Positions 25,995 to 38,923 of a stretch of 64,000 bases of DNA are shown here, piece after piece. The notes under the pieces were generated by a model. It was given only the letters and a program-made list of their open reading frames with translations. It did not search any database and was not told the origin of the DNA. The stretch comes from Candidatus Omnitrophota bacterium (GTDB lineage Bacteria; Omnitrophota; Gorgyraeia; Gygaellales; Profunditerraquicolaceae): assembly GCA_041648915.1 (NCBI GenBank), contig JBAZOC010000002.1, positions 2,175 to 66,174 on the forward strand. Reading direction: 5' to 3'. Position 1 is the stretch's first letter. Each line of letters starts with the position of its first letter. Both the position numbers and the translations under genes were made by a program.

Positions 25995-26022
25995 TTGACA
26001 AAAATTTCAAATAGTTTATACT
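25995..26022 (+). promoter_or_regulatory. sigma70-type promoter (TTGACA - 16 nt - TATACT)
   Basis: Hexamers at 25995-26000 and 26017-26022, about 80 nt upstream of the small ORF at 26104. Confidence 0.6.
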
Positions 26023-26103
26023 GTCGCTGGCGGTAATTATTTTCCATAAAGGGGCGCTTGAGGCAGAACTACCGGCAATATATTCTCAAAATGGAGGCGC
26101 AAG

Positions 26104-26214
26104 ATGAAATCAAAAAAGGTAAACAAGAAAGCAAAAGCAAAAAAAGTAAATAAAACTACGAAAGCGAAGAAGAAGCTCTCGCGCTACTGCCGATCAGGCA
26201 GGGTTTTGTGGTAA
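26104..26214 (+). CDS. 36-aa lysine-rich small ORF (MKSKKVNKKAKAKKVNKTTKAKKKLSRYCRSGRVLW), candidate RiPP precursor
   Basis: Below the ORF-track cutoff; found by hand. ggagg SD lies 6 nt upstream of the ATG. It is the first ORF after the promoter and sits ~100 nt upstream of a radical SAM/SPASM gene. Confidence 0.45.
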   Translation: MKSKKVNKKAKAKKVNKTTKAKKKLSRYCRSGRVLW

Positions 26215-26417
26215 GGATCTTTGCGCCAGCCGGAACATTCTTAATATCTGCGTTTTACAAAAATCCAGATTAGGTATCAAGCAATCAGGCGGGACTCCGT
26301 ATTTTTTAGGAGTAGATTATTATTAAAAGACTTTCACCAGTTGTTTTATTCCATAAATTAGGCCGCTATATCGGCATATCTACATCTACGGGGGATTTTT
26401 ACGATCTGTCTCCGGAA

Positions 26418-27821
26418 ATGTATAATTTATTAAAAAAATGGAATAAAGAGCTATCCTCTTTTCCGTTTCCTCCTAAACAGGAAGCCGCAGTTTTAGCAAA
26501 GAAGTTAAATATCCCCCTAAAAATAATAAATTTTTTTCCCGTTTCCGACAAAAAGATATCATTTAAAAGCGATAAGAGCACATCTGCCGGGCTCACCGAT
26601 CTAACCCTCAATTTAACGTCAAGCTGTAATCTTCGTTGTGTTTATTGCTGGAATGATCATGGCCAATATTCCAATCGGCACTTTTCGGAGAAACAAAACA
26701 GAGAATTTAAGGAAGATATTAAAGATGCATCTATGTCAATTAGGACTGCCTTAAAGGCGGTAGATATCTTAGTTGGTGCGCGGGGAAAAGAAAAAAATTT
26801 AGTAGTGGATTTTTATGGCGGTGAGCCCCTGTTGAATCTTAGAACACTTAGGACAACGGTTGATTATTGCCGAGAAAACCAATCAAAATGGAAAACAAAG
26901 TTTCATTTCCTCTTGGCAACGAATGGGACCCTTTTAAGCCCGGATGTAGCCGAGGAGTTAATTAATAAGGGGGTGCAAATTGCCGTGAGCATCGATGGCC
27001 CCAGGGCTGTCCATGATAATAACCGCCCGTTTATCAATCAAAGGGGCAGTTTTGATATAATTTTAGCAAACCTTAAAAGAATGCCTAGGGCAGTCATGAA
27101 AAGGCTGGTGGGCCGTACTACGGTAACCCCATTTTTTCCGGATATGGTAAAATTGTATGAGAATTTAAGGAACCTGGGGTTTGAGCGGATTGAGCTTTTT
27201 GAAAGTGAAGATGCCTGCCATAGGTTCTTCCCCGGGCAGGAGGCAAGTTTTTTCAGCACGGAAGATAGTTATAAGCTTCTATGCAAAACATACGAGAAAT
27301 TGGCATTGCGCTATATCGATGATGTTGTTTCGGGAAATTTGAATTACAGTAAAACGTTCTTTAACCGGTTTTTTAAATTAATGCAAAGGTTATATTATAA
27401 CCAGGAAGTTTCCGGAGGCTGCCCTGCCGCCAAAGGACAGATTGCAGTAGGTATTGACGGTAAGATTTATCCCTGTACTTCATTTTTAGGGGTGCGTGAA
27501 TTTGAATTGGGGCAGGTGGATTGCGGTATTGATAATAAGAGGTTTCAGGCGTTTATCGAAAAGATAAATAAGCGGTTTGAATATTGCCAGAAAGATTGTG
27601 ATCTCTTCAGCCTTTGCCGTTCAACAGGTTCCTGCCTGAATGTTAATTATTTTTTTAATGGAGACCCTGCCGTACCGCATAAAAGAAGTTGCGCTCTTTT
27701 TGCCGAAAAATTAGCTTTGGCCGCCGCAAGTTTATCTATTCTTTCCGAGAAAATCCCTCACCGGCTGGAGGAGTTGTTTGGCTTTGACCCAATAGGTAGA
27801 AGAGGAAATAAATTATATTAA
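26418..27821 (+). CDS. radical SAM / SPASM-domain enzyme (peptide-maturase or anSME-like); true start probably upstream at ~26316
   Basis: CNLRCVYC cluster, FYGGEPLL, and a C-terminal Cys-rich SPASM region (GGCPA..YPC...CQKDCDLFSLCRSTGSC). The frame stays open 34 codons upstream of the ATG, behind an aggag SD. Confidence 0.85.
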   Translation: MYNLLKKWNKELSSFPFPPKQEAAVLAKKLNIPLKIINFFPVSDKKISFKSDKSTSAGLTDLTLNLTSSCNLRCVYCWNDHGQYSNRHFSEKQNREFKEDIKDASMSIRTALKAVDILVGARGKEKNLVVDFYGGEPLLNLRTLRTTVDYCRENQSKWKTKFHFLLATNGTLLSPDVAEELINKGVQIAVSIDGPRAVHDNNRPFINQRGSFDIILANLKRMPRAVMKRLVGRTTVTPFFPDMVKLYENLRNLGFERIELFESEDACHRFFPGQEASFFSTEDSYKLLCKTYEKLALRYIDDVVSGNLNYSKTFFNRFFKLMQRLYYNQEVSGGCPAAKGQIAVGIDGKIYPCTSFLGVREFELGQVDCGIDNKRFQAFIEKINKRFEYCQKDCDLFSLCRSTGSCLNVNYFFNGDPAVPHKRSCALFAEKLALAAASLSILSEKIPHRLEELFGFDPIGRRGNKLY

Positions 27822-27830
27822 AAAAAACAC

Positions 27831-27858
27831 TTGACAAAAAGCGGTAAGAGGATAAACT
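27831..27858 (+). promoter_or_regulatory. sigma70-type promoter (TTGACA - 16 nt - TAAACT) of the Fur-headed locus
   Basis: Hexamers at 27831-27836 and 27853-27858. Confidence 0.6.
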
Positions 27859-27861
27859 AGT

Positions 27862-27874
27862 AATGGTAACCATT
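27862..27874 (+). promoter_or_regulatory. 6-1-6 palindrome AATGGT-A-ACCATT, candidate operator overlapping the transcription start
   Basis: Perfect inverted repeat read directly, 4 nt downstream of the -10 element and 22 nt upstream of the fur-family ATG. Confidence 0.5.
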
Positions 27875-27896
27875 TTCAATAACTAAGGAAATTAAT

Positions 27897-28367
27897 ATGC
27901 CAAGAAGAGATTGTGCGGGGCCGCTATGGTGGCACGGAAAATTCAGAGGCTGTGGCTATCGGATAACTTCCGGCAGGGAGGCTATTCTGGAGGTGCTTTC
28001 TAAATCCGATAAACATCTAAGCGCCGAAGATATCTATATGAAAGTCCATCCCAAATATCCTAATATTGGTTTAACCACTATCTATAGGACATTGGATGTC
28101 TTAGCCAGCTTAGGTCTTATTTTCAAGTTTGATTTTGGGGATAAAAGAGCGCGTTATGAATTAGCAGAAGGCCCTAAGGGCGCGCACCATCACCACCATT
28201 TAATATGCACAAGCTGTAATCGTGTTATTGATTATGCGGACTTTATTGATGAAGAGGTAGAACTGCTCAATCAGACAGAAAAAGGCCTGGCTAAGAAATA
28301 CGACTTTAAGATTACTAACCATTTAATTCAGTTTTACGGTTTATGTAATGCCTGTGTTAAGAAATAG
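27897..28367 (+). CDS. fur: Fur-family metalloregulator with a ~20-aa N-terminal extension
   Basis: Winged-helix region (ILEVLSKSDKHLSAEDIY...TIYRTLD.L), metal-site HHHHHLIC, and paired CxxC motifs (CTSC, CNAC). Confidence 0.88.
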   Translation: MPRRDCAGPLWWHGKFRGCGYRITSGREAILEVLSKSDKHLSAEDIYMKVHPKYPNIGLTTIYRTLDVLASLGLIFKFDFGDKRARYELAEGPKGAHHHHHLICTSCNRVIDYADFIDEEVELLNQTEKGLAKKYDFKITNHLIQFYGLCNACVKK

Positions 28368-28496
28368 CTGTATTTTTTTCTTATATAATGGAAATGGTTT
28401 TTACTAGCAATAAAATAGGCAATGGCTAGGTCAAGATTTATGGAGCTGGCCGTGAGCCGATAAAGATAAAAAAAGCAAAGGAAGGAGGTGTTTAAT

Positions 28497-28883
28497 ATGC
28501 CAAGAGGAGATGGAACAGGGCCAATGGGATTAGGTCCGGCAACAGGAAGAGCAGCGGGTTTCTGTGCGGGTTATTCTATGCCTGGCTATGCGAATCCGGT
28601 ACCGGGCAGAGGTTATGTTGGCCAAGGTAGAAAAGGGTTCTTCGGCCGCGGTAGCAACAGGGGCCGGAGAAATTGGTATTACGCTACCGGCATTCCTGGA
28701 TGGCAGAGAGCCTCAATGGGGATGCCTGCTTTTGGCGGGGCGTATTCTTATGCGCCTGAAGTTACTCCGAAGCAGGAAGCAGATATCTTAAAAAATGAAG
28801 CTGATTTTTTGAAAAAACAGCTTGAAGATATCCAGAGCCGCATTGAGACGTTAGAAAATGTCCAGGCAGCAAAAAGTGAGTAA
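28497..28883 (+). CDS. DUF5320-like protein (MPRGDGTGP N-terminus, Gly/Arg-rich middle, C-terminal coiled coil)
   Basis: The N-terminal MPRGDGTGPMGLGP.TGR..G.CAG pattern is recalled from the DUF5320 family. Start set at ATG 28497 (ggagg SD). Confidence 0.75.
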   Translation: MPRGDGTGPMGLGPATGRAAGFCAGYSMPGYANPVPGRGYVGQGRKGFFGRGSNRGRRNWYYATGIPGWQRASMGMPAFGGAYSYAPEVTPKQEADILKNEADFLKKQLEDIQSRIETLENVQAAKSE

Positions 28884-28891
28884 CTACTAGA

Positions 28892-28930
28892 AGATGAGGG
28901 AATAGGTAATGAAGATCTATTCCCTCATCT
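28892..28930 (+). other. perfect 14-bp hairpin (agatgagggaatag / ctattccctcatct, 11-nt loop) between cistrons
   Basis: Read directly. Followed by gggtttatt, a weak T-tract. Confidence 0.65.
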
Positions 28931-28955
28931 GGGTTTATTAGAATAAGGAGCGAAT

Positions 28956-29354
28956 ATGCGTGTAGCTATATCTACCGATGGAGAGTTTGTATCCGCCCAT
29001 TTTGGCAGGTGCCCAACTTTTACTCTTGTTGATATCGAGAAGGGCAAGGTAACCCAGATGACGGAAGTGGCAAACCCCGGGCATCAGCCGGGCGCAATTC
29101 CTGAATTTTTGCATAAAAAAGGTGTAAATTGTATTGTTGCCGGCGGTATGGGGATGCGGGCAACATCATTTTTTGAAGAGTACAGCATCAAGACAATTGT
29201 GGGGATAAGCGGGAAGATCGCTGCAGTGGTAGAACAGTTTAAAAAAGGCACCTTGGAAGGAGGAGAGAGCCTCTGTAGGCCCGGAGAGGGTAAAGGTTAT
29301 GGCTTAGAAAAAGAAGAATGCGATCATCCGCATAAAGAGGATTGTGACCATTAA
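28956..29354 (+). CDS. NifB/NifX-type (dinitrogenase FeMo-cofactor-biosynthesis domain) cluster-binding protein
   Basis: MRVAIST.G..VS.HFGRCP.F..VDIE.G pattern plus a C-terminal Cys/His-rich tail. Confidence 0.8.
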   Translation: MRVAISTDGEFVSAHFGRCPTFTLVDIEKGKVTQMTEVANPGHQPGAIPEFLHKKGVNCIVAGGMGMRATSFFEEYSIKTIVGISGKIAAVVEQFKKGTLEGGESLCRPGEGKGYGLEKEECDHPHKEDCDH

Positions 29355-29368
29355 GGAGGTTTGAGGTT

Positions 29369-29746
29369 ATGAAAATATGTGTTACTTCAGAAGGCAGCAG
29401 TTTAGATTCTAAGGTAGATCCGCGTTTCGGCAGGTGCCAGCATTTTATTATCGTTGATACCGATTCTTTAGAATTTGAAGCAGTCGAAAACCCGAATATT
29501 GAATCTATGGGGGGCGCCGGGATTCAGTCGGCACAACTCGTGGCTTCTAAAAAGGTTAAGGCCGTAGTTACGGGAAACATGGGCCCGAATGCTTTTCAGA
29601 CCCTGCAGGCGGCAGGAATAGAAGTTTTTACGGGAGCCTCGGGTACGGTTCAGGAGGCGCTTAATAAATATAAAAAAGGAGAATTTAAGGCAGTTTCCGG
29701 CCCCAGCGTAGGTTCGCATTCTGGAATACCGAATAAGAATAAATAA
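29369..29746 (+). CDS. NifB/NifX-type cluster-binding protein (second copy)
   Basis: MKICVTSEG..L.S.VDPRFGRCQHFIIVD....FEAVENP and VVTGNMGPNAF. Confidence 0.8.
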   Translation: MKICVTSEGSSLDSKVDPRFGRCQHFIIVDTDSLEFEAVENPNIESMGGAGIQSAQLVASKKVKAVVTGNMGPNAFQTLQAAGIEVFTGASGTVQEALNKYKKGEFKAVSGPSVGSHSGIPNKNK

Positions 29747-29808
29747 GTAGTTGTTATGGCGACGACGCAGATTTTAGTTGGAAAATAGCGGAAAAGGAGG
29801 TGATGAAT

Positions 29809-29997
29809 ATGCCGAGAGGAGACGGAACTGGCCCTAGAGGCCAAGGTGCAGGGATGGGTAGGGGTAGAAGGGGTAATGCGGGCCCCGGAGGGAATTGCAT
29901 ATGTCCTTCCTGCGGGGAAAAGATCCCGCATCAGGCAGGCACACCCTGTGCTTCGATGAATTGCCCTAAGTGCGGGATAAGGATGGTAAGAGAATAA
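29809..29997 (+). CDS. DUF5320-like small protein with a C-terminal double zinc-ribbon
   Basis: MPRGDGTGPRG N-terminus, Gly/Arg-rich region, then CICPSCG...CPKCG. Start set at ATG 29809. Confidence 0.7.
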   Translation: MPRGDGTGPRGQGAGMGRGRRGNAGPGGNCICPSCGEKIPHQAGTPCASMNCPKCGIRMVRE

Positions 29998-30015
29998 CAG
30001 AAGGGAGCAGAATAA

Positions 30016-30501
30016 ATGGGTACAAAAGCAAGAGAGTTAGTCGGTGCCGATGTTAAAAAGGTGGTTATTTTGTTAAACAAGGCTTTTGCGGATGAATGGC
30101 TTGCCTATTATCAATATTGGGTAGGAGCTAAAATCGCGCGCGGACAGATGCGTAATGCAGTCGTCAATGAATTAGAACAGCATGCGGGCGAAGAACTGAA
30201 GCACGCCGGGATGCTTACCGAAAGAATCATTCAGCTTGGCGGGATACCTGTATTGAAGCCCGAGGATTGGTATAAAGAGGCAAATTGCGAATATGCTGCG
30301 CCTGAAGATCCTGCGGTCAATGCGCTTTTAAAACAAAATATCAAAGGCGAGCAATGTGCCATAGAAGTTTACCGGAAGCTCTCAGAGGCCACAAAGGATA
30401 AGGATGTGGTTACATATCATCTTGCGCTGGAAATAATGGCGGATGAGATTGAACACGAAGAAGATTTGGAATCTCTATTGGAAGATATGACGAGTAAGTA
30501 G
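30016..30501 (+). CDS. ferritin-like / Dps-like di-iron protein
   Basis: Four-helix-bundle ligand pattern: E..H in ELEQHAGEELKHA and E..H in ADEIEHEEDL. Confidence 0.75.
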   Translation: MGTKARELVGADVKKVVILLNKAFADEWLAYYQYWVGAKIARGQMRNAVVNELEQHAGEELKHAGMLTERIIQLGGIPVLKPEDWYKEANCEYAAPEDPAVNALLKQNIKGEQCAIEVYRKLSEATKDKDVVTYHLALEIMADEIEHEEDLESLLEDMTSK

Positions 30502-30507
30502 GCACCT

Positions 30508-31113
30508 TTGGATAAAGAAATTTTAGAGAACAACAAAAAGTATTTAGAGCGGGTTGCGTTTTACCGAAGCAACGGGTACGATTTAGAAAAGGAAAGAGAT
30601 TTTATCCTGGATAAATCCCTGCCTATTTCCGGGGAAATCCTTGAAATCGGGACCGGTAAGGGCCATTTTGCGCTTGCTTTGGCAAAGCGGGGCTATAGTT
30701 TCACGAGTATAGATATCTCTCAACAGGATCAAGAGATAGCTAGGCTAAACTTGCGTTATTTTGGTCTGGAAAAACAGGTTATCCTCAAGATGGAAGACGC
30801 CGAACGTTTGAGTTTTCCGGGCCAAAGTTTTCATATTATATTTTCCATTAATGTATTCCATCATTTAAAGAGGCCAGTAGCTGTTTTAGATGAAATAATC
30901 CGCTTGTTGCGCCCAAAGGGCAAGGCGGTCTTAAGCGATTTTAGCGCTAGGGGCTTAGAGATTATTAACGCCTGCCATACGCGCGAGGGCAGGACGCACG
31001 ATCATTGCAAGTACCGTTTAAGAGAAGCAAAAAATTATTTCGTTAGAAAAGGATTTAGCATTAAGGAGTGCCAGAGCGCAGTCCAGGAAGTACTTATAGC
31101 CGAGGGAACTTAA
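30508..31113 (+). CDS. class I SAM-dependent methyltransferase
   Basis: Motif I ILEIGTGKGHFA, then IDIS and VLRPKG. TTG start. Confidence 0.75.
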   Translation: MDKEILENNKKYLERVAFYRSNGYDLEKERDFILDKSLPISGEILEIGTGKGHFALALAKRGYSFTSIDISQQDQEIARLNLRYFGLEKQVILKMEDAERLSFPGQSFHIIFSINVFHHLKRPVAVLDEIIRLLRPKGKAVLSDFSARGLEIINACHTREGRTHDHCKYRLREAKNYFVRKGFSIKECQSAVQEVLIAEGT

Positions 31114-31124
31114 GGATAAAAGAT

Positions 31125-31979
31125 ATGATTATTTCAGTGGCCAGCGGAAAAGGCGGGACGGGAAAGACGACAGTGGCGGTTAATTTGGCTTTATCCCTAA
31201 GCAACGTGCAGCTTGTTGATTGCGATGTTGAAGAGCCTAACGCCCATATTTTTTTAAAACCAATTATTAAAAAGCAAAATAAGGCTTATATTCCTGTCCC
31301 GGAAATTGATGATGCAAAATGCGTTTATTGCGGAGAATGCGCCAAGGTTTGTGTTTATAATGCGCTAGCCGTACTTCCGGGGGCAGAAGGCAAGAAAGGC
31401 ACAACCCTGGTGTTTGCGCAGCTATGCCATGGCTGCGGCGCCTGCAGCGCTCTTTGTCCTGAAAAGGCGATAAAAGAAGTAAATAGGGAAATAGGAGTAG
31501 TGGAGATAGGCAATTGCGGAAAAGTAGAATTTGTCCACGGGAAACTCAATATCGGCGAAGCGATGTCCCCGCCTCTTATCCGCCAGGTTAAAGAACATAT
31601 CAACATTAAGAAGACTGTGATCATTGACGCCCCTCCGGGTACGTCTTGCCCGGTAGTTACTTCAGTTCAGGGTAGTAATTTTTGTTTATTAGTTACTGAA
31701 CCTACTCCATTTGGCTTAAATGATTTGGTTTTAGCGGTAGAGGTATTAAGAAAAATAAAGATTCCTTTTGGGGTAGTGATTAATCGTTCAGATTTAGGAA
31801 ATAATAAAACCGAGGCATACTGCAAGCAAGAAGGTATTTCGGTATTGATGAGAATACCATTTAAAAAAGAAATAGCCAGGGCTTATTCCCAGGGAGAGCC
31901 TATAGTTAAGGCATTCCCGGAGTATAAAAAAGATTTTCGTAGCCTTTTTAATACAATTAAAAATGGAAAATTTAGTTAA
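31125..31979 (+). CDS. MinD/ParA-type P-loop ATPase with an inserted 2x[4Fe-4S] ferredoxin domain
   Basis: Deviant Walker A ASGKGGTGKTT and two CxxCxxCxxxCP motifs (CVYCGECAKVC, CHGCGACSALCP). Start set at ATG 31125. Confidence 0.85.
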   Translation: MIISVASGKGGTGKTTVAVNLALSLSNVQLVDCDVEEPNAHIFLKPIIKKQNKAYIPVPEIDDAKCVYCGECAKVCVYNALAVLPGAEGKKGTTLVFAQLCHGCGACSALCPEKAIKEVNREIGVVEIGNCGKVEFVHGKLNIGEAMSPPLIRQVKEHINIKKTVIIDAPPGTSCPVVTSVQGSNFCLLVTEPTPFGLNDLVLAVEVLRKIKIPFGVVINRSDLGNNKTEAYCKQEGISVLMRIPFKKEIARAYSQGEPIVKAFPEYKKDFRSLFNTIKNGKFS

Positions 31980-32376
31980 AGATTTCTTAAAGCAGAAAAG
32001 ATTCGCCGTAGTAGGTTCATTCAGGAATGAGGAAAAATTTGCCTATAAAATTTTAATTAATTTAACAGAAAAAAATTATGAAGTTTTTCCTGTTAATCCA
32101 CGTATGCGCGAAGTTGGAGGGAGGGTTTGTTATAAGACTATAAGCGATATTCCATATAAGGTGGATGTTGCCAATATAGTTACTCCTCCGTTGATAACTG
32201 AAGGTATTTTAAAAGAATGCTCGCGGAAAGGCATAAAAAGAGCATGGCTTCAGCCTGGCGCAGAGAATCAAGCTGGCATCAAGTTTTGTCATGATCATGG
32301 CATAAAGGTAATTCATGGCCTTTGTGTCCGGTTAGAATTGTTGAAAGAAAGGGAGACCTTATGTGTAAAAAGGTAG
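31963..32376 (+). CDS. CoA-binding domain protein
   Basis: FAVVGSFRNEEKFAYKI...NYEVFPVNPR and Rossmann-like CoA_binding pattern. Confidence 0.75.
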   Translation: MENLVKDFLKQKRFAVVGSFRNEEKFAYKILINLTEKNYEVFPVNPRMREVGGRVCYKTISDIPYKVDVANIVTPPLITEGILKECSRKGIKRAWLQPGAENQAGIKFCHDHGIKVIHGLCVRLELLKERETLCVKR

Positions 32377-33710
32377 ATATACTTATTATCGGCGCGGGCC
32401 CCGCAGGCGTAGTAAGTGCCGTAACTGCCAGAAAATACTATCCCTCAAAAAGCATTTTAGTGATTAAGGATATTGAAGATGGGGTGATCCCCTGCGGAAT
32501 TCCTTATATGTTTGCCAGCCTGGATAACCCTGCTGAGAATAAGTTAGGGATGGCATCTTTGGAAAAGAACAATATTGAATTAGTCATTGATACGGCTGTA
32601 AGTATAAATCGAAAAGGAAAAACGATAGAAACGGCAAGCAAGGTTCAATATTCCTATGAAAAGTTAGTTTTGGCCATTGGTTCAACGCCCTTGATCTTGC
32701 CTATTAAGGGGGTAGATAAGCAGGGGGTCTATCTAATAAATAAAGAAATGAGGTATTTAAAGAACGTTATAGCGCAGATTAAACTCTGTAAAAATGTCTT
32801 AGTAATCGGAGGAGGGTTTATCGGTGTTGAGTTCGCTGATGAGCTTTGTAAATTAAAGGGAATAAAGGTTACCTTGGTAGAGATGCTCCCGCATTTACTG
32901 GCTAATTCCTTTGACCCTGAGTTTTCGCAGATGGCTGAAGCACGTTTAAAGGAAAAAGGAGCTCACATTTTAACTAATACTCGGGTGGAGGAAATAATCG
33001 GCCAGGGTAAAGTCGAAAAAATTAAGTTTAGCGACGGTAAAGTAATGCCCGCTGAAGGAGTAATTCTTGGTGTGGGTTCAAGCCCGAATGTAAAGCTAGC
33101 TATAGATGCGGGATTGGAGCTGGGGTCTTGTAAGGGCATTTTAACCGATGAATATATGCGTACTTCGGTTGACCCGGATATTTTTGCGATTGGAGATTGT
33201 TCTTGCAAGAGAGATTTTTATACCCGCAAAGCCATTTCCGTGATGCTTGCGTCTACTGCGACGGCTGAAGCGAGAATCGCGGGAGCCAATCTTTATCAGA
33301 TAAAAGTTATCCGTGAGAACAAGGGGACGATTGCTATATATTCAACGTATATTGACGGACTGGTTCTGGGTTCGGCAGGGCTTACCGAAAAGACCGCGCG
33401 GGAAGAAGGTTTTGAAATTGTAGTCGTCAGCATAGATGGCGTTGATAAGCATCCCGCTTCTTTACCGGGGGCTTGTAAAGGCAAAATTAAACTAATTTTT
33501 TCTAAACAGTCCGGGATTATTTTGGGAGGCCAGGTTAGTTGTGGTATGTCTTGCGCCCAAATGATCAATATCATTGGTATTGCTATCCAGAAGCGTATGT
33601 CGGCAACCGAACTGGAGACTTTACAGGTAGCCACGCACCCTTATCTAACCAGCGCGCCTACGATGTACCCTATTATTCTAGCCGCTCAAGATGTGTATGG
33701 GAAAATATAA
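32361..33710 (+). CDS. FAD-dependent pyridine nucleotide-disulfide oxidoreductase, CoA-disulfide reductase / NADH oxidase family
   Basis: GAGPAG FAD fold, single redox Cys in VIPCGIPYMF, second GGGFIGVE fold, and AIGDC. Confidence 0.82.
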   Translation: MCKKVDILIIGAGPAGVVSAVTARKYYPSKSILVIKDIEDGVIPCGIPYMFASLDNPAENKLGMASLEKNNIELVIDTAVSINRKGKTIETASKVQYSYEKLVLAIGSTPLILPIKGVDKQGVYLINKEMRYLKNVIAQIKLCKNVLVIGGGFIGVEFADELCKLKGIKVTLVEMLPHLLANSFDPEFSQMAEARLKEKGAHILTNTRVEEIIGQGKVEKIKFSDGKVMPAEGVILGVGSSPNVKLAIDAGLELGSCKGILTDEYMRTSVDPDIFAIGDCSCKRDFYTRKAISVMLASTATAEARIAGANLYQIKVIRENKGTIAIYSTYIDGLVLGSAGLTEKTAREEGFEIVVVSIDGVDKHPASLPGACKGKIKLIFSKQSGIILGGQVSCGMSCAQMINIIGIAIQKRMSATELETLQVATHPYLTSAPTMYPIILAAQDVYGKI

Positions 33711-33726
33711 CCAAGGATAAGATTAT

Positions 33727-34578
33727 ATGAAACAGATTGCAGTCATCAGCGGGAAAGGCGGTACAGGTAAGACCGTAATCACGGGGGCATTTGCGGCATT
33801 AGCGAGAAATAAAGTTATGGCTGATTGCGATGTGGACGCTGCGGATTTACATTTATTATTACAACCAAAAATTAAGGAACGCCATGACTTCAAAAGTGGT
33901 TTAAGCGCTGCAATTGACAAAAAAATCTGCCAGCAATGCGGGAAGTGTATCGCAGCCTGTAGATTCTCTGCTATAAGCGCTAGTTTTGTTATTGACCATG
34001 TTTCCTGTGAAGGGTGCGGTTTTTGCAGCCATATTTGCCCGGTGGGGGCCATTAAGATGGAAGAGAATCTTGCGGGAGAGTGGTTTATTTCTGAAACACG
34101 ATTTGGCCCTTTGGTGCACGCCAAGCTTGGGATCGCCCAAGAGAATTCGGGCAAACTTGTTTCCTTAGTTAGGGTGCAGGCAAAAGAACTGGCCGAAAAG
34201 AATAGCTGCGATTGGGTAATTATTGACGGCGCTCCGGGTATAGGTTGCCCGGTTATTGCTTCACTTTCAGGTATCGATTGCGCGGTAGTGGTAACTGAGC
34301 CCACGTTGTCCGGCTTGCATGATGCGTTAAGGGTTATAGAAGTAACCAGGCATTTTAATGTCCCCTCGAGGTTAGTAATTAACAAGTATGATTTAAACCC
34401 GGATATGTCAGGTAAAATAGAAAAATATTGCGTAAAAAACGAGATTTCTTTAATCGGTAAAGTCAGGTTTGATAAAATAGTAGTAGAAGCCATGGTGGAG
34501 GGTAAGACTATCATGGAGTATAAGGATACGCCAGTTAAAGATGAAATCAATGAAATATGGGACAAACTACAGGTTTAA
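33727..34578 (+). CDS. MinD/ParA-type P-loop ATPase with an inserted ferredoxin domain (second copy)
   Basis: ISGKGGTGKT Walker A plus CQQCGKCIAACR and CEGCGFCSHICP motifs. Confidence 0.85.
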   Translation: MKQIAVISGKGGTGKTVITGAFAALARNKVMADCDVDAADLHLLLQPKIKERHDFKSGLSAAIDKKICQQCGKCIAACRFSAISASFVIDHVSCEGCGFCSHICPVGAIKMEENLAGEWFISETRFGPLVHAKLGIAQENSGKLVSLVRVQAKELAEKNSCDWVIIDGAPGIGCPVIASLSGIDCAVVVTEPTLSGLHDALRVIEVTRHFNVPSRLVINKYDLNPDMSGKIEKYCVKNEISLIGKVRFDKIVVEAMVEGKTIMEYKDTPVKDEINEIWDKLQV

Positions 34579-34581
34579 ATT

Positions 34582-35580
34582 ATGGATTCTGTAAATAAAC
34601 GGGATATGCACATATTAAAATATTTTTCATCGTTGGTAAGTATTTCTCATGGGCAAGTGATCAATATTACTGAGCCAACGCTTATGTTTTGTCCATTGGC
34701 AAAGCACCTGTATAAAGATTTTAGCAACGTAGGGGACAATGACAAAGAAGCTATTAAAAGCGCTATAAAAAGCGTGATTGAATCAAAAATAAGAGATTAT
34801 GGTTTTTTCACCGAGAAAAGAAAATTTTCATTTAATGATGTGGCAATACCATATGGCGCATCGGAGATGCTTAGTCTCGCGTTAGGAAAAAAGGCGATTG
34901 ATGCGGCAGTTGTCGTTTGCGAAGGTGCAGGAACAGTTATTGCAGATACGCCGAAAATTGTCCAGGGAATAGGCGCACGAATGAATAGCTTGTTATTGAC
35001 ATCGCCCATTAAAGGGATTATTGAAAAACTTAAAAATTCTGGTTGCCGGGTAATATTTGAAGACGCGCTTATTGATCAGTTTCAGGGAACCCGGGAAGCG
35101 CTAAGGGCAGGATATAAGACTATTGCCGTTACTGTAAGCGGTCATGCAGCCGAGGATTTGAAGAGGTTACGTTTATTAGAAGAAGAACACGGCGTCAGAA
35201 TAATTTTATTGGCGGTATGCACAACGGGTGTAGCTAAAGACAAAATCGCCAGGATACGCGATTACGCTGATCTAGTGTGGAGCTGCGCTTCTTTTGATAT
35301 ACGCCGGATGATCGGGCCTTTAGCGAAGTATCAACTTTCCAAACAAATACCTGTTTTTGTGCTTACTAAGAACGGGGTAGATTTTGTTTCTTCCTGCGCA
35401 GAAGAAAGCGAACTAGTGAAAAGTCTGGATACAAGAAAACAGTACCTTTTCTCAAATGAGCTTAGCGGGCAATGCCTTCATCTCGGAAGTTTTAAAGCAT
35501 TTATCAGCGAATCTAAACTGCCGGTTAACGCCCATAAGATGCCGAGCTTTGAAGGTAAGAATGAATACGCGCCGGCATAG
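34582..35580 (+). CDS. conserved hypothetical protein (possibly DUF2099 / methanogenesis-marker-8-like; tentative)
   Basis: Long clean ORF, tightly spaced. The AAVVVCEGAGTVI motif resembles what I recall of DUF2099, but I cannot verify this. Confidence 0.5.
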   Translation: MDSVNKRDMHILKYFSSLVSISHGQVINITEPTLMFCPLAKHLYKDFSNVGDNDKEAIKSAIKSVIESKIRDYGFFTEKRKFSFNDVAIPYGASEMLSLALGKKAIDAAVVVCEGAGTVIADTPKIVQGIGARMNSLLLTSPIKGIIEKLKNSGCRVIFEDALIDQFQGTREALRAGYKTIAVTVSGHAAEDLKRLRLLEEEHGVRIILLAVCTTGVAKDKIARIRDYADLVWSCASFDIRRMIGPLAKYQLSKQIPVFVLTKNGVDFVSSCAEESELVKSLDTRKQYLFSNELSGQCLHLGSFKAFISESKLPVNAHKMPSFEGKNEYAPA

Positions 35581-35609
35581 ATAAAGAATTTTACAAGGGA
35601 GATACTCCT

Positions 35610-36005
35610 ATGGGAAATGAAAGCAATAAAGAAGAAACTATAGGCTATCCTAAAAAAGTTGTTGAGCTTTTGAATAATCCGCAGTTCTTTGGCAGAATGA
35701 ACGACCCAACAGCCTCGTCATATTTAAAAGGGCCTTGCGGGGATGCTATGGAATTTTATCTAGTAATAGAAAATAAAAGGATTACCGATATCAGGTATTA
35801 TACAAATGGATGCGGCGCTACAAGGGCCTGCGCGGCAATGGTTGCGCATTTGGCTTACGGCAAAACCATTAAGGAAGCATTAAATATTTCCGCGGGAGAG
35901 GTAATTGCACAGTTGAAAGGGTTGCCCGAAGATCATTTACATTGTTCGATACTTTCTGTAAGTACTCTTTATAGGGCCATAGCGGATTATCTGCTCAAGA
36001 AGTAG
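35610..36005 (+). CDS. IscU/NifU-N-type Fe-S cluster scaffold protein
   Basis: Three ligand cysteines in GPCGD, NGCGAT and HLHCS, the standard IscU spacing. Confidence 0.85.
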   Translation: MGNESNKEETIGYPKKVVELLNNPQFFGRMNDPTASSYLKGPCGDAMEFYLVIENKRITDIRYYTNGCGATRACAAMVAHLAYGKTIKEALNISAGEVIAQLKGLPEDHLHCSILSVSTLYRAIADYLLKK

Positions 36006-36076
36006 CAGCTCATTAAGCTTTAATTATGCATTGTTTCTAGCCGGGAAGAAGAAATTTAAATCAGTCGTGATAAACC

Positions 36077-36868
36077 ATGAAGCCAGTGTTTAAATATATT
36101 TATGGCCCAGTACCATCCTGGAGATTAGGGAGTTCTCTAGGCGTAGATCTACTTTCTCAGGAAGAAAAAATCTGTAACTTTGATTGTGTTTATTGTCAGC
36201 TTGAGCCGGCTAAAAAGCATGTGGTGGAAAGGAAAATTTATGTGCCACTGGAAAAAATTATCGGAGAGTTCAAAACACTTCCCGATGTAGGTATAGATTA
36301 TGTTACTTTTTCCGGCAGAGGGGAGCCTACCCTGGCAGCTAATTTAGGCCAGGCGATAGAAGCAATAAAATCAATCCGTAAAGAGCCGGTTGCAGTTTTA
36401 ACTAATAGTTCTTTAATCGGGCTGGATGGAGTAAGAGAGGAACTTATTTTGGCAGATTTTGTTATCGCTAAACTAGATGCTTGCTCTCTGAAGTCCTTAC
36501 AGGAAATTAACAGGCCAGCCCGGGGGGTAGAGTTCAGTAGCATTTTAGATGGCCTAAAAAAATTCAGGAAAAATTACCCGGGGAAATTCGCCTTGCAAAT
36601 AATGTTTAGTGAAAGCAACAAACTGGATAGCAATAAGTATATCTATTTGGCAAATTATATTCAGCCGGATGAAATTCAAGTTAATACGCCGTTACGGCCT
36701 TGTAACGTCAAGCCGTTGGCAAAGGAAGAAATCTTAAGGATAAAAGATTATTTTATTTCCGCTTGCAAAGGAATTAATATAGTCTCCGTTTATGACGATA
36801 GAATGTTTAAAGATATAGCGTCCATCAGCAGTAAAGATACATTAAAAAGAAGAGGTAAAGTAAAATGA
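36077..36868 (+). CDS. radical SAM protein (paralog of 16096..16815)
   Basis: YGPVPSWRLGSSLGVDL....ICNFDCVYCQLE and FSGRGEPTL, collinear with the 16096 protein. Confidence 0.85.
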   Translation: MKPVFKYIYGPVPSWRLGSSLGVDLLSQEEKICNFDCVYCQLEPAKKHVVERKIYVPLEKIIGEFKTLPDVGIDYVTFSGRGEPTLAANLGQAIEAIKSIRKEPVAVLTNSSLIGLDGVREELILADFVIAKLDACSLKSLQEINRPARGVEFSSILDGLKKFRKNYPGKFALQIMFSESNKLDSNKYIYLANYIQPDEIQVNTPLRPCNVKPLAKEEILRIKDYFISACKGINIVSVYDDRMFKDIASISSKDTLKRRGKVK

Positions 36869-37761
36869 AGACATATTTGGATTGTATTCCTTGCTTCTTT
36901 AGGCAGGCGCTTGAGGGCGCGCGGATCATTAAAGCATCTCCAGGCCAGCAAAAGTGGATTATAGATGGATTTGCCAGAAAAATACCTAAAATTTCACTTA
37001 AATCCAGTCCCCCTGAGATAGCCAGACTCGGGTACGCTCTTTTAAAAAAGATAAGTCCCCAGGGGGATCCTTATAAGGAAATAAAACAAAAAAGTAACCG
37101 TATTGCTTTAAGGCTATTAGGTAAATTAGAAAATAAGGTAGACCATTCACGGGACAGGCTTTTAACGGCATTAGAATTAGCTATCGCCGGCAACATTATA
37201 GATTTTGGCGTAAAGAATGATTTGGACGTGAAAGCGGAATTAAAGAAGATACTCGCAGAAGAAGGCAGGGCTATCCGCAAGAAAACCAAATTTCATTATT
37301 CAGAGTTCAGGCGAACCTTGAAAGGCGCAAAAAATATCTTATACCTGGCGGATAACGCGGGAGAGGTGGTCTTTGACCGGGTCTTGGTTGAAGAAATAAA
37401 AAAAGAGTATCCGGATAAGGACATTTATTACGCTGTTAAAGCAAAACCTGTTATAAATGATGCGTTGTTTGAAGATGCAAAAGCTTGCGGAATTAATAAG
37501 ACGGCTCGGCTTATCTCTAATGGTACGGACGCCCCGGGAACGCTGCTCACTTTATGCTCAAAAGAATTTAAGCTGCTCTATAATAGCGCGGATATGATAA
37601 TTAGCAAGGGCCAGGGAAATTTTGAGTCTTTATCGCAGGAAAAAAGGCCCATCTTTTTTTTGTTTATGGTGAAATGCCCGGTAGTGGCTAGAGAGACTAA
37701 ATGCAAAATCGGAAATATAGTATTATTTTATAATTTAAAGAAAAGCCGAGGTTCTAAATGA
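36865..37761 (+). CDS. DUF89 (ARMT1-like damage-control phosphatase) family protein
   Basis: N-terminal CIPC, then LADNAGEVVFD and SKGQGNFESL motifs. ATGA overlap with the upstream rSAM gene. Confidence 0.8.
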   Translation: MKTYLDCIPCFFRQALEGARIIKASPGQQKWIIDGFARKIPKISLKSSPPEIARLGYALLKKISPQGDPYKEIKQKSNRIALRLLGKLENKVDHSRDRLLTALELAIAGNIIDFGVKNDLDVKAELKKILAEEGRAIRKKTKFHYSEFRRTLKGAKNILYLADNAGEVVFDRVLVEEIKKEYPDKDIYYAVKAKPVINDALFEDAKACGINKTARLISNGTDAPGTLLTLCSKEFKLLYNSADMIISKGQGNFESLSQEKRPIFFLFMVKCPVVARETKCKIGNIVLFYNLKKSRGSK

Positions 37762-38183
37762 AATTGGTCACTAAAAATATCCATTATGCGATTAAGTCGC
37801 TTCTTTATTTTGCTAAGGATCCAGCTCAGGTAATTTCTGTAGATGAGCTGGTAGAGAAATTAAATATGCGCAGAGCTTTTTTACGAAAAATTCTGCAGGC
37901 CTTAAGTAAACAGGGAATACTAAAGTCTTTAAAAGGAAGTGGCGGGGGTTTTAGGTTGAATATTGTGCCGGGTAAAATACGCATTATAGATATAGTAAGT
38001 ATTTTTCGGGATACTAGAGCTATCTTTAGTTGTTTATTTGAGGAAGATGCTTGCCCTCAACCCGACGGATGCCTGTTAATGCAAAGAATGAAAAAGACAG
38101 AGGCTCAATTAAATAAAACATTAAGGCAACTTACCATAGCAAGGCTGTTTAAGAGTATTAACAGGCAGGCTAGAAAAGATTAG
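37758..38183 (+). CDS. Rrf2-family transcriptional regulator with a Cys-x7-Cys-x5-Cys cluster motif
   Basis: N-terminal wHTH (YAIKSLLYFAK...ISVDELVEKLNMRRAFLRKILQALSKQGILKS.KG.GGG) and SCLFEEDACPQPDGC. Confidence 0.85.
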   Translation: MKLVTKNIHYAIKSLLYFAKDPAQVISVDELVEKLNMRRAFLRKILQALSKQGILKSLKGSGGGFRLNIVPGKIRIIDIVSIFRDTRAIFSCLFEEDACPQPDGCLLMQRMKKTEAQLNKTLRQLTIARLFKSINRQARKD

Positions 38184-38193
38184 CCTGTTTTTT
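38166..38193 (+). terminator. intrinsic terminator overlapping the Rrf2 stop
   Basis: 7-bp stem caggcta/tagcctg followed by tttttt. Confidence 0.6.
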
Positions 38194-38209
38194 AAAAGGC
38201 GGTTTTTAG

Positions 38210-38923
38210 ATGCGGATAAAAGTAATTTTTGATAAAGGCGCTTTGGGGAAAGACCTGCATACCGGTTGGGGCCTCTCTTTTTTAGTTGACGAGAAGGTAT
38301 TGTTTGATACCGGCGAAAATGGAGAATGGCTTATTGAAAACATGCGCTCTCTGGGAGTTGATATAAACAAGATCGAAGCGGTAGTAATCTCTCATGACCA
38401 TTGGGACCATACCGGAGGCTTGTGGAGAATATTGAAAGAAAAAAAAGGGCTTAAACTATATGGCTGTTCCGGTTTTAGCAATGAATTTAAAGATAAGGTA
38501 AAAGCGGCGCAGGCGAAGCTTATCGAAGTTGCAAAAGTTACAGAGATTACGCCGGGTATTTATACTACGGGAGAAATACCCGGTATTTACCATGGCAAAT
38601 ATATGCCTGAACAAGCAGTAGCATTAAAGACACAAAATGGGCTTACTGTAATCACAGGATGCGCCCATCCTGGAATCCTCAAAATACTAGAGAAGCTGAA
38701 GGCAGGGTTTTTAGCTGAGCCTATTTATCTTGTATTGGGCGGATTCCACCTGATGGAATCAGAGAAAAGGGCAATAGAGGTAGTAGCCGAAAATTTTAAG
38801 AAGATCAATATAATAAAAGCCGGTCCTACGCATTGCTCCGGAGATATGGCAGAAGGCATTTTTAAGAAATATTATGAAGGAGATTTTGTTTCGGTCAAAG
38901 CGGGGCAGGAGATAGAGGTCTAA
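38210..38923 (+). CDS. MBL-fold metallo-hydrolase
   Basis: ISHDHWDHTGG (HxHxDH) motif and a later GCAHPG motif. Confidence 0.8.
   Translation: MRIKVIFDKGALGKDLHTGWGLSFLVDEKVLFDTGENGEWLIENMRSLGVDINKIEAVVISHDHWDHTGGLWRILKEKKGLKLYGCSGFSNEFKDKVKAAQAKLIEVAKVTEITPGIYTTGEIPGIYHGKYMPEQAVALKTQNGLTVITGCAHPGILKILEKLKAGFLAEPIYLVLGGFHLMESEKRAIEVVAENFKKINIIKAGPTHCSGDMAEGIFKKYYEGDFVSVKAGQEIEV

Follow-up and report, generated by a model that had tools for sequence, protein, structure and literature searches.

A Fur-family protein as the probable regulator of an ORP-type iron-sulfur operon and the likeness of its N-terminus to the DUF5320 module

Three genes lying less than 2 kb apart in DNA from a Candidatus Omnitrophota bacterium (contig JBAZOC010000002.1; the 64,000 nucleotides analysed are called the window hereafter) start with a common MPR(R/G)D..GP motif. 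One of them, fur, encodes a regulator of the Fur family, another a DUF5320 protein and the third a protein of 62 amino acids, and their gene neighbourhood has, judged by its content, the core of an operon of the Desulfovibrio 'orange protein' (ORP) type. The question raised by this locus is why a regulator should share its first residues with small proteins encoded next to it. The explanation that we favour, at a probability of about one half, is that the regulator would be an autoregulated Fur repressor of the ORP-type operon, whose N-terminal arm includes a relic of a DUF5320-type module and may respond to iron-sulfur (Fe-S) species.

The Fur open reading frame (ORF), at 27897-28367, starts with MPRRDCAGPLWWHGKFRGCGY (DNA atgccaagaagagat), the DUF5320 ORF, with its ATG at 28497, starts with MPRGDGTGPMGLGPATGRAAGFCAGY (DNA atgccaagaggagat), and the 62-residue ORF, with its ATG at 29809, starts with MPRGDGTGPRGQG (DNA atgccgagaggagac). 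A search of the six frames of the 64 kb with the pattern MP[RK].[DNE]..G[PQ] returned exactly three matches, all of them these gene starts, so that the near-identity of the three starts pointed out in a preliminary description of this DNA was confirmed and was found nowhere else in the window. The features on which the argument is built are the following.

27831..27858, + strand: promoter-like site of fur, TTGACA, 16 nucleotides, TAAACT (sequence pattern)
27860..27882, + strand: Fur-box operator GTAATGGTAACCATTTTCAATAA (matrix score 33.1 of 36.8 bits)
27885..27889, + strand: Shine-Dalgarno-like AAGGA of fur (read from the sequence)
27897..28367, + strand: Fur-family regulator, 156 amino acids (Pfam FUR, 3e-34; sequence and fold matches to Fur/PerR structures)
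27897..27923, + strand: codons 1-9, MPRRDCAGP, the DUF5320-like stretch (module profile, 9.9 bits; hhalign)
27927..27962, + strand: codons 11-22, WWHGKFRGCGYR, subfamily-specific arm in the place of helix alpha-1 (entropy 0.83 bits)
28385..28407, + strand: weaker operator-like site in the fur/DUF5320 spacer (15.9 bits on the + strand, 15.4 bits on the - strand)
28497..28883, + strand: DUF5320 protein, 128 amino acids (PF17253), with the 26-residue module at 28497-28574, a Gly/Arg/aromatic-rich middle predicted to be disordered and a C-terminal helix
29809..29997, + strand: 62-residue protein with an MPRGDGTGP start (29809-29835), a Gly/Arg-rich linker and a six-Cys ribbon (ORF and own family)

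The start codon of fur at 27897, for which a downstream alternative had been considered, was upheld, as it is the first one after the upstream stop. No ATG, GTG or TTG follows in frame before V33, which already lies within the DNA-binding domain, an AAGGA stands 8 nucleotides upstream of the ATG, and residues 11-22 are kept as protein in 79 species-level sequences; altogether, these points make the start secure. As for the neighbours, the product of 28497-28883 passes the gathering score of PF17253 (27) with 99.2 bits (3e-28, residues 1-119). The 62-residue protein, which had been labelled as a second DUF5320-like protein, reaches 12.2 bits on the same model over residues 1-20 only, and the label had to be abandoned: it belongs to a separate small Cys-rich family with 243 homologue clusters, mostly without a Pfam family, a few of whose members are tagged PF17253 through the module.

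Membership of the regulator in the Fur family is indicated by sequence and by fold. The Pfam FUR match covers residues 20-147 (118 bits, 3e-34), a winged helix followed by the dimerisation domain, 24 solved Fur-family chains match by sequence, and Foldseek returned Fur and PerR structures with E values of about 1e-12. The two CxxC pairs of the structural Cys4 zinc site (C104, C107, C150 and C153) are invariant among 65 homologues, and so are H40, E88, H98-H101 and H142, which align with H33, E81, H87, H88, D89, H90 and H125 of Vibrio cholerae Fur; the glutamate matching E108 of that protein is ambiguous in the same alignment. Fold, domain order, Cys4 site and His/Glu ligands are thus those of Fur, PerR and Zur proteins, including the Fur of Helicobacter pylori and of Campylobacter jejuni with their long N-termini. 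On the other hand, none of the NCBIfam equivalogs (Fur, PerR, Zur, Irr) was reached, the Bacillus-type Fur model giving 132 against 220 bits and PerR 92 against 180, and no account of this Fur subfamily or of its link with ORP-type clusters was found in the literature. The subfamily appears to be undescribed, a member of the Fur family that would belong to no named equivalog.

The window protein is 100% identical to a protein of a metagenome-assembled genome of Candidatus Omnitrophota, and 120 relatives among the matches listed share 74-100% identity over their full length, with the N-terminal region found in all full-length ones. A scan of species-representative genomes, on which most of the locus counts given below are based, returned 80 loci with 62-81% identity. 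The labels on those 80 genomes cover at least 12 phylum-level groups, with Omnitrophota, Nitrospirota/Thermodesulfovibrionales, Planctomycetota, Elusimicrobiota, Atribacterota, WOR-3 and TA06, and also Syntrophia-type Deltaproteobacteria, Clostridia, Calditrichota, Firestonebacteria, Lentisphaerae and others. In 66 of the 68 loci with enough downstream sequence, ORP-type genes directly follow fur on the same strand, and within 4 kb of it we find NifX-like genes in 60, MinD-ferredoxin genes in 60, DUF5320 in 52 and Cys-ribbon genes in 37 loci. The tie of this Fur to the DUF5320 system, which had been proposed as a physical one, therefore stands at the level of gene context. At one locus (L001, 9281-9721), a second, canonical Fur of 146 residues with the N-terminus MTNRDHEASVELFKKTCAQKGLKIT is divergently encoded beside the ORP-type Fur; no second Fur was found in the window.

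A layout of TTGACA, a TATA(A/C)T-like box, a Fur box and a ribosome site is common to 72 of 78 loci, the first two elements being recognisable upstream of fur in the majority of the 78 listed regions. The operator has the consensus ATAATGGAAACCATTTTCAATAA, and the matrix derived from 72 of the 78 species has a maximum of 36.8 bits. As in known Fur-family systems, a Fur box lies over the regulator's own promoter, and the site at 27860-27882 is the sole strong one in the 64 kb, followed by the weaker copy at 28385-28407 ahead of the DUF5320 gene, with no other site above 13 bits in the window. This confinement of strong operator sites to its own operon, as far as the window reaches, distinguishes the regulator from Fur, PerR and Zur. 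The idea of a special, non-Fur operator was discarded, since the site is a variant of the Fur box and, in some species, approaches the classical AATGATAATCATT by degrees. With an operator over its own promoter, complete ligands and an operon downstream, the window protein is, as far as sequence can tell, a genuine, metal-site-complete and autoregulating Fur that controls one operon. Four Nitrospirota/Thermodesulfovibrionales loci (L022, L023, L030 and L042), whose Fur starts are among the best kept (MPW[RK]DGTGPP), have no operator within 100 nucleotides upstream; at L023 and L042 the sequence upstream of fur looks, by eye, like the end of the preceding gene, and at L023 ORP-type genes are missing from the 6 kb downstream.

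What, then, is the N-terminal stretch of this regulator? The preliminary description assumed that canonical Fur proteins begin directly with the DNA-binding helix and that the first ~20 residues were an add-on. The former is contradicted by alignment to solved Fur proteins and to a canonical paralogue: the counterpart of residue 17 of the window protein is residue 13 in Bacillus cereus Fur, 14 in PerR, 9 in Vibrio Fur and 24 in Campylobacter Fur, the Helicobacter Fur is two residues longer than the window protein, and a canonical Fur paralogue beside one of the homologues has 21 residues ahead of LKIT. The latter was not borne out either, as the length falls inside the range of the family and the region replaces helix alpha-1. 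The difference from Fur, PerR and Zur lies in what occupies that place, namely WWHGKFRGCGYR, preceded by a DUF5320-like start. Residues 11-22 have an entropy of 0.83 bits against 0.97 bits for the Fur core and are equally conserved, while residues 2-10, at 2.53 bits, form the most variable nine-residue window of the whole protein. The expectation that the N-terminal stretch would be conserved in homologues beside DUF5320 genes was therefore correct for residues 11-22 and failed for residues 2-10, which overlap the shared part. By species, P2 is conserved in 73%, G8 in 75%, P9 in 53%, His13 in 73% and C19 in 78%.

The arm is rich in Gly (23%), Arg (18%) and Trp (9%) and carries a mean net charge of +4.2, and an [RK]GC motif, which a single one of 644 control N-termini shows, occurs in 55 of 79 Fur arms. 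A profile of residues 1-30 run against 1.84 billion representatives gave 20 matches, all of them Fur proteins or fragments except a repetitive one that matched by chance, and the occurrence of the arm on non-Fur proteins was accordingly rejected.

The likeness to DUF5320 resides in the first residues. On a hidden Markov model built for the module of DUF5320 (26 residues), 22 of the 79 Fur N-termini came out above every one of the 644 control N-termini and 37 above their 99th percentile, the window protein ranking 10th of the 79 with 9.9 bits. The signal is confined to positions 1-10, and the RGCGY segment adds about 0 bits. Of the module invariants, M1, P2, G8 and P9 are present in the window Fur; G14, G18 and C19 of Fur could pair with G17, G21 and C23 of the module solely if gaps are allowed, again with about 0 bits added. 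Fur residues 1-9 match the first nine positions of the module of DUF5320 (PF17253), and Fur lacks the remainder of that module (GxGPxTGRGxGYC) and the C-terminal coiled coil. The best-kept forms are MPWRDGTGPP in Nitrospirota, MPRRDGTGPQ and MPFRDGTGPP in Omnitrophota, MPGGNGTGPP in Clostridia and MPRGDGKGPP in Elusimicrobiota, together with MPGRDGMGPP and MPNFDGMGPP in Firestonebacteria and Planctomycetota, and such well-kept forms come from several phyla and lie dispersed across a neighbour-joining tree built from the Fur core. This distribution fits an ancestral MPxRDGTGPPWWHG[KR]FRGCGYR that would have been eroded in many lineages, the tree being not robust enough for a proof. We infer that residues 1-9 probably descend from the DUF5320 module.

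The preliminary description considered the motif a portable one, and in this respect its occurrence in several protein families, together with fusions recognised by Pfam, bears it out, the motif being specific to this gene system. Within the 80 loci its occurrences are restricted to Fur (25), DUF5320 (66) and Cys-ribbon proteins (30), plus eight small proteins of no assigned class in which, by eye, the same Gly-rich module continues. Of 152 occurrences sampled in a metagenome scan for the DNA pattern encoding MPxxDGTGP, 92 were DUF5320-like and 37 of Cys-ribbon type; one had a ferredoxin domain, and the other 22, for the most part short peptides rich in Gly and Arg, were unclassified. A number of these occurrences fall within longer ORFs. 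The Pfam-confirmed fusions join the module to Nitro_FeMo-Co and a cationic Gly/Lys/Arg tail (L108 and L125), to the helix-turn-helix family DUF134 (L154 and L186; 34-40 bits) and to Fer4 (L135). For the DUF5320 protein of the window, AlphaFold2 gave a predicted local distance difference test (pLDDT) value of 41-57 over residues 1-90, rising to 83-90 in most of the C-terminal helix (91-126), so that the module and the next 60 residues are predicted to be disordered. No literature discussing DUF5320 was found, the name occurring only in two unrelated papers.

The single module of the window gene is not the rule in Omnitrophota, where many DUF5320 proteins have 171 residues and two tandem modules. 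In this tandem form (P0121-P0240; L040, 6523-7023; L052, 6533-7021), MPGFDGTGP...GYCV is followed by a linker of ~20 residues and by MPRGDGTGP, and a ribosome-site-like coding sequence just before the second Met makes a long and a short product both possible. Six sediment metagenome loci (L099, L105, L115, L116, L132 and L151) have three or four tag-bearing small genes in 1-1.5 kb, such arrays being made up of one DUF5320 with two modules, another with a single module and GRGFGRG repeats, and a Cys-ribbon protein.

DUF134 (PF02001) was found in 38 of the 120 tag-bearing metagenome loci sampled, against 4 of 120 for this Fur, and several of these DUF134 genes immediately precede that for DUF5320; neither the 80 Fur loci nor the window contain DUF134. 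Given this distribution, Fur and DUF134 look like alternative regulators of the same operon. Like this Fur, DUF134 is encoded beside DUF5320, NifX-like and MinD-ferredoxin genes; it has another DNA-binding fold, and the module, where some members carry it, is complete and C-terminal. Many DUF134 C-termini show a Cys ribbon followed by a Gly/Arg-rich tail with one Cys, for instance GRGCRRQRRG or GRGCGKRGG. The DUF134 proteins of these clusters (L089, L098, L102, L109, L127, L153, L154 and others) commonly start with MPRP(R/K)x(C/R)R, and Met-Pro-Arg starts thus recur in a fourth family of the system.

Several explanations compete for these observations. According to the preliminary description, the motif of Fur might have been acquired by recombination with the neighbouring gene, and some features of the DNA are indeed those expected of a recent gene conversion from DUF5320: 21 of 27 bases are common to the two starts, CCA and AGA, which are locally rare (8% of Pro and 16% of Arg codons, respectively), are present in both, and the same codon is used at 4 of the 5 identical residues (P = 0.039 from interior codon usage). 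However, the same codons are favoured at codons 2-6 in the tag genes of all 80 genomes, where CCA makes up 70% of Pro at codons 2-6 (background 16%), AGA 88% of Arg at codon 3 (25%) and GGA 78-85% of Gly at codons 4 and 6 (28%), and an enrichment in A/T-ending codons at codons 2-6 is seen in every operon gene, those for NifX, MinD-ferredoxin and methyltransferase included. A general codon bias at gene starts thus accounts for the DNA identity of fur and DUF5320. Moreover, the Fur start is no closer to the DUF5320 start of its own genome than to those of others across 66 genomes (3.88 against 3.99 of 9 residues, p = 0.96; 15.0 against 15.1 of 27 bases, p = 0.69), no within-genome excess was found relative to the Cys-ribbon start across 28 genomes, and the comparisons with the neighbours' starts gave p = 0.68-0.96 for protein and 0.62-0.69 for DNA. 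A slight excess within genomes is seen for the DUF5320 and Cys-ribbon starts themselves (p = 0.02 and 0.006). The lack of an own-genome excess for Fur argues against recent recombination and also against co-evolution with a shared partner, and close relatives have graded variants of the start (MPRRDCPGP, MPRRDYIGP, MPGRNCLGP); a recent conversion is therefore largely refuted and highly improbable, and gene conversion or co-evolution with the neighbours' starts was rejected. The opposite possibility, a convergence without common origin driven by selection on the first codons (an A-rich, unstructured mRNA and Met-Pro) and by a Gly/Pro cap before the WW segment, would agree with the strongly constrained synonymous choice at codons 2-6, with a similarity that is short and statistically modest, and with the position of G8, P9 and P10 immediately ahead of the conserved arm. 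It is at odds with the recurrence of the exact D-G-T-G-P at positions 5-9 in the Fur of several phyla, with the NifX, MinD-ferredoxin and methyltransferase genes, which share the codon bias at their starts and have no motif, and with longer module-like Gly/Arg insertions in some Fur proteins, for example MPRRDDGFTGRQGRGPHWW; we regard it as improbable. As a separate observation, codons 2-6 of the tag genes (window 28497-28514 and 29809-29826; L003-L082) are near-fixed across phyla, with A preferred over T at the third position. The preference exceeds that of the genes around them and may reflect selection acting on the mRNA where translation of these very short, probably abundant proteins begins. 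A remnant of a second module was also sought by eye in the 129-nucleotide spacer before the DUF5320 gene, and nothing convincing was found beyond the ribosome-site region.

A further issue is whether the nine residues still work. A tag for interaction, processing or cluster binding that couples Fur physically to the DUF5320, NifX and MinD-ferredoxin proteins was the function originally advanced, and it would be consistent with the restriction of the motif to genes of this system, its near-invariance in DUF5320 and Cys-ribbon proteins, the full module carried by the second regulator family DUF134, and the retention in Fur of P2 (73% of species) and G8 (75%). In Fur, however, the tag falls in the most variable stretch, a score above every control is reached in just 22 of 79 species, many species that keep the operon begin their Fur with unrelated residues (MAEDFDRGR or MMKSTQKQP, for instance), and the Fur tag shows no within-genome correlation with those of its neighbours. 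A strict tag function is unlikely, given that the motif is gone from two thirds of the species, which nevertheless keep the operon, the operator and the rest of Fur. The plainest alternative, to which we give slightly more credit while still finding it doubtful, is a purely structural or DNA-contacting arm at residues 11-22 without sensing, preceded by a neutral leftover. Its position, that of the canonical helix alpha-1 and the loop into the DNA-binding domain, its strongly basic character and the complete canonical metal sites, which make an extra sensor dispensable, all speak for it. On the other hand, a standard Fur-box variant needs no special arm, the conserved Trp-Trp, Gly and Cys are unusual for an arm contacting DNA, and the alternative regulator DUF134 often ends in Gly/Arg-rich Cys tails or in a full module.

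The relic-bearing, iron-sulfur-responsive Fur that we prefer would thus be a local, autoregulated repressor of the ORP-type operon, belonging to a subfamily widespread in anaerobes that would occupy the place taken by DUF134 in other lineages. Its 22 N-terminal residues would form a cationic Gly/Arg/Trp/Cys arm instead of the amphipathic first helix of Fur, with residues 1-9 (ancestrally MPxRDGTGP) as a weakly constrained relic of a DUF5320-type module, a presumably disordered, Cys-bearing and Gly/Arg-rich peptide that would move among the proteins of the system. By way of the arm, and in addition to the intact canonical metal sites of Fur, the regulator might react to whichever Fe-S species or partner the module handles, a coupling that we consider conceivable and rather less than probable. 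Several points weigh against this explanation. The DUF5320 likeness spans nine residues, and hhalign aligned columns 1-9 only, with P = 8.9e-4 and a probability of just 23%. Pfam DUF5320 (PF17253) gave no match to residues 1-35 of the window Fur, the best score of any Fur N-terminus being 15.5 bits (E = 0.039, homologue P0115), below the cut-off of 27. Cys19 and His13, present in 78% and 73% of species, cannot be indispensable ligands, to judge by this conservation. The operator is an ordinary Fur box, and the arm could merely contact DNA or be structural; AlphaFold2 places a short helix at residues 10-15 (pLDDT about 67), with a low confidence of 48-67 over the arm as a whole. Finally, the phylum labels derive from metagenome bins and may be wrong in part.

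A precedent for such a peptide is offered by IssA of Pyrococcus furiosus, in which a NifX-like domain is followed by a cationic, aromatic and Gly-rich disordered tail with a sole Cys, and which binds and stores thioferrate (PMC5524996) and is induced by sulfur. The fusion of Nitro_FeMo-Co with the module and a cationic tail described above has the IssA architecture. In the window, the NifX-like domain and the Gly/Arg-rich protein are encoded by separate genes, the likeness being judged from architecture and composition, and the IssA tail and the Fur arm are of the same chemical character. By analogy, the Fur arm and the tails or modules of DUF134 might be miniature IssA-type tails that bind the anionic Fe-S with which the DUF5320 and NifX-like proteins deal, either thioferrate-like or as a bridging cluster, a proposal that we advance as a conjecture and hold to be unlikely as it stands. 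Were it true, these regulators would gauge stored or assembled iron-sulfur beyond free Fe(II), and the ORP-type clusters of anaerobes could be assigned to Fe-S storage or delivery. More generally, clusters with NifX-like, MinD-ferredoxin and DUF5320 genes are widespread in anaerobes and one conserved Fur subfamily seems to guard them, probably with a remnant of their signature peptide, while the unrelated regulator DUF134 carries the full peptide; a wider pattern may exist in which regulators of ORP- or IssA-type clusters bear Gly/Arg/Cys peptides of the system that they control. An arm and an operator of known sequence give a handle on the signal of the operon, possibly a direct sensing of iron-sulfur stores, and even if the arm were merely structural, this would be a clean case in which gene context defines a subfamily of regulators.

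Downstream of fur, the genes follow in the order DUF5320, two Nitro_FeMo-Co, Cys-ribbon, ferritin-like, S-adenosylmethionine (SAM) methyltransferase, MinD-ferredoxin, CoA-binding, CoA-disulfide-reductase-like flavoprotein and MinD-ferredoxin, with these further features.

28892..28930, + strand: 16-bp hairpin 3' of the DUF5320 gene (-26.5 kcal/mol, z = -4.2)
28956..29354, + strand: NifX-like (Nitro_FeMo-Co) protein 1 (PF02579, 2.5e-20; matches the C-terminal domain of MrpORP)
29369..29746, + strand: NifX-like (Nitro_FeMo-Co) protein 2 (PF02579, 1.4e-28)
30016..30501, + strand: ferritin-like protein (PF00210, 2.7e-26)
30508..31113, + strand: SAM-dependent methyltransferase (Pfam; many related loci have one)
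31125..31979, + strand: MinD-like ATPase with an inserted ferredoxin domain of two [4Fe-4S] motifs, of Orp3/Orp4 type (CbiA/ParA and Fer4)
33727..34578, + strand: second MinD-ferredoxin ATPase (CbiA/ParA and Fer4)

In Desulfovibrio, the MinD-like proteins Orp3 and Orp4 have two [4Fe-4S] motifs, Orp8 consists of a lone Nitro_FeMo-Co domain, and Orp5 is homologous to a small [2Fe-2S] protein, Dde_3197 (PMC6345978). Single-domain Nitro_FeMo-Co proteins (two PF02579 proteins, for which MrpORP's C-terminal domain is a match as well) and two MinD-like ATPases with two [4Fe-4S] ferredoxin motifs (31125-31979 and 33727-34578) are present here too, and the 62-residue protein with its six Cys is a candidate counterpart of Orp5. 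As for the MrpORP fusion of Mrp/NBP35 with Nitro_FeMo-Co (Orp9), no gene of the region reaches its model, the best one scoring 96 against 450 bits. The Desulfovibrio operons are controlled by OrpR, a dedicated sigma-54 activator in which an Fe-S cluster serves to sense the redox potential (PMC8359166, PMC6345978) and whose targets do not extend beyond the ORP cluster (PMC8359166). The OrpR of Desulfovibrio vulgaris and this Fur are alike in being dedicated regulators beside an ORP-type cluster. In contrast to the sigma-54/OrpR arrangement, the region studied here has a sigma-70-type promoter, a Fur box and an adjacent Fur; OrpR is a PAS-domain enhancer-binding activator with demonstrated redox sensing, whereas this Fur is of an unrelated, repressor type and its sensing is conjectural.

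Some minor observations complete the description of the locus. The perfect hairpin at 28892-28930, which separates the DUF5320 gene from the first NifX-like gene and is followed by only a weak U-tract, could determine how much DUF5320 is made relative to the proteins encoded downstream. A search of Rfam over 26000-36000, which covers the shared 5' sequence and the hairpin, gave no match at E <= 1, and a known RNA element over either was consequently rejected. Directly upstream of fur (26418-27821), a radical-SAM/SPASM gene suggested a ribosomally synthesized and post-translationally modified peptide precursor; this reading was dropped because a homologue of the enzyme accompanies the operon in 1 of 80 loci and it thus lies outside the conserved neighbourhood. 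The class-I SAM methyltransferase (30508-31113) is a frequent operon member across related loci, and N-terminal methylation of the conserved Met-Pro starts is a candidate role for it. The CoA-binding protein and the CoA-disulfide-reductase-like flavoprotein are encoded at 31963-33710, between both MinD-ferredoxin genes. The cluster continues at 34582-38923 with DUF2099, NifU_N, radical-SAM, ARMT1-like, Rrf2 and metallo-beta-lactamase-fold genes, and the Rrf2 regulator at 37758-38183 places a second regulator of Fe-S type in the same string of genes.

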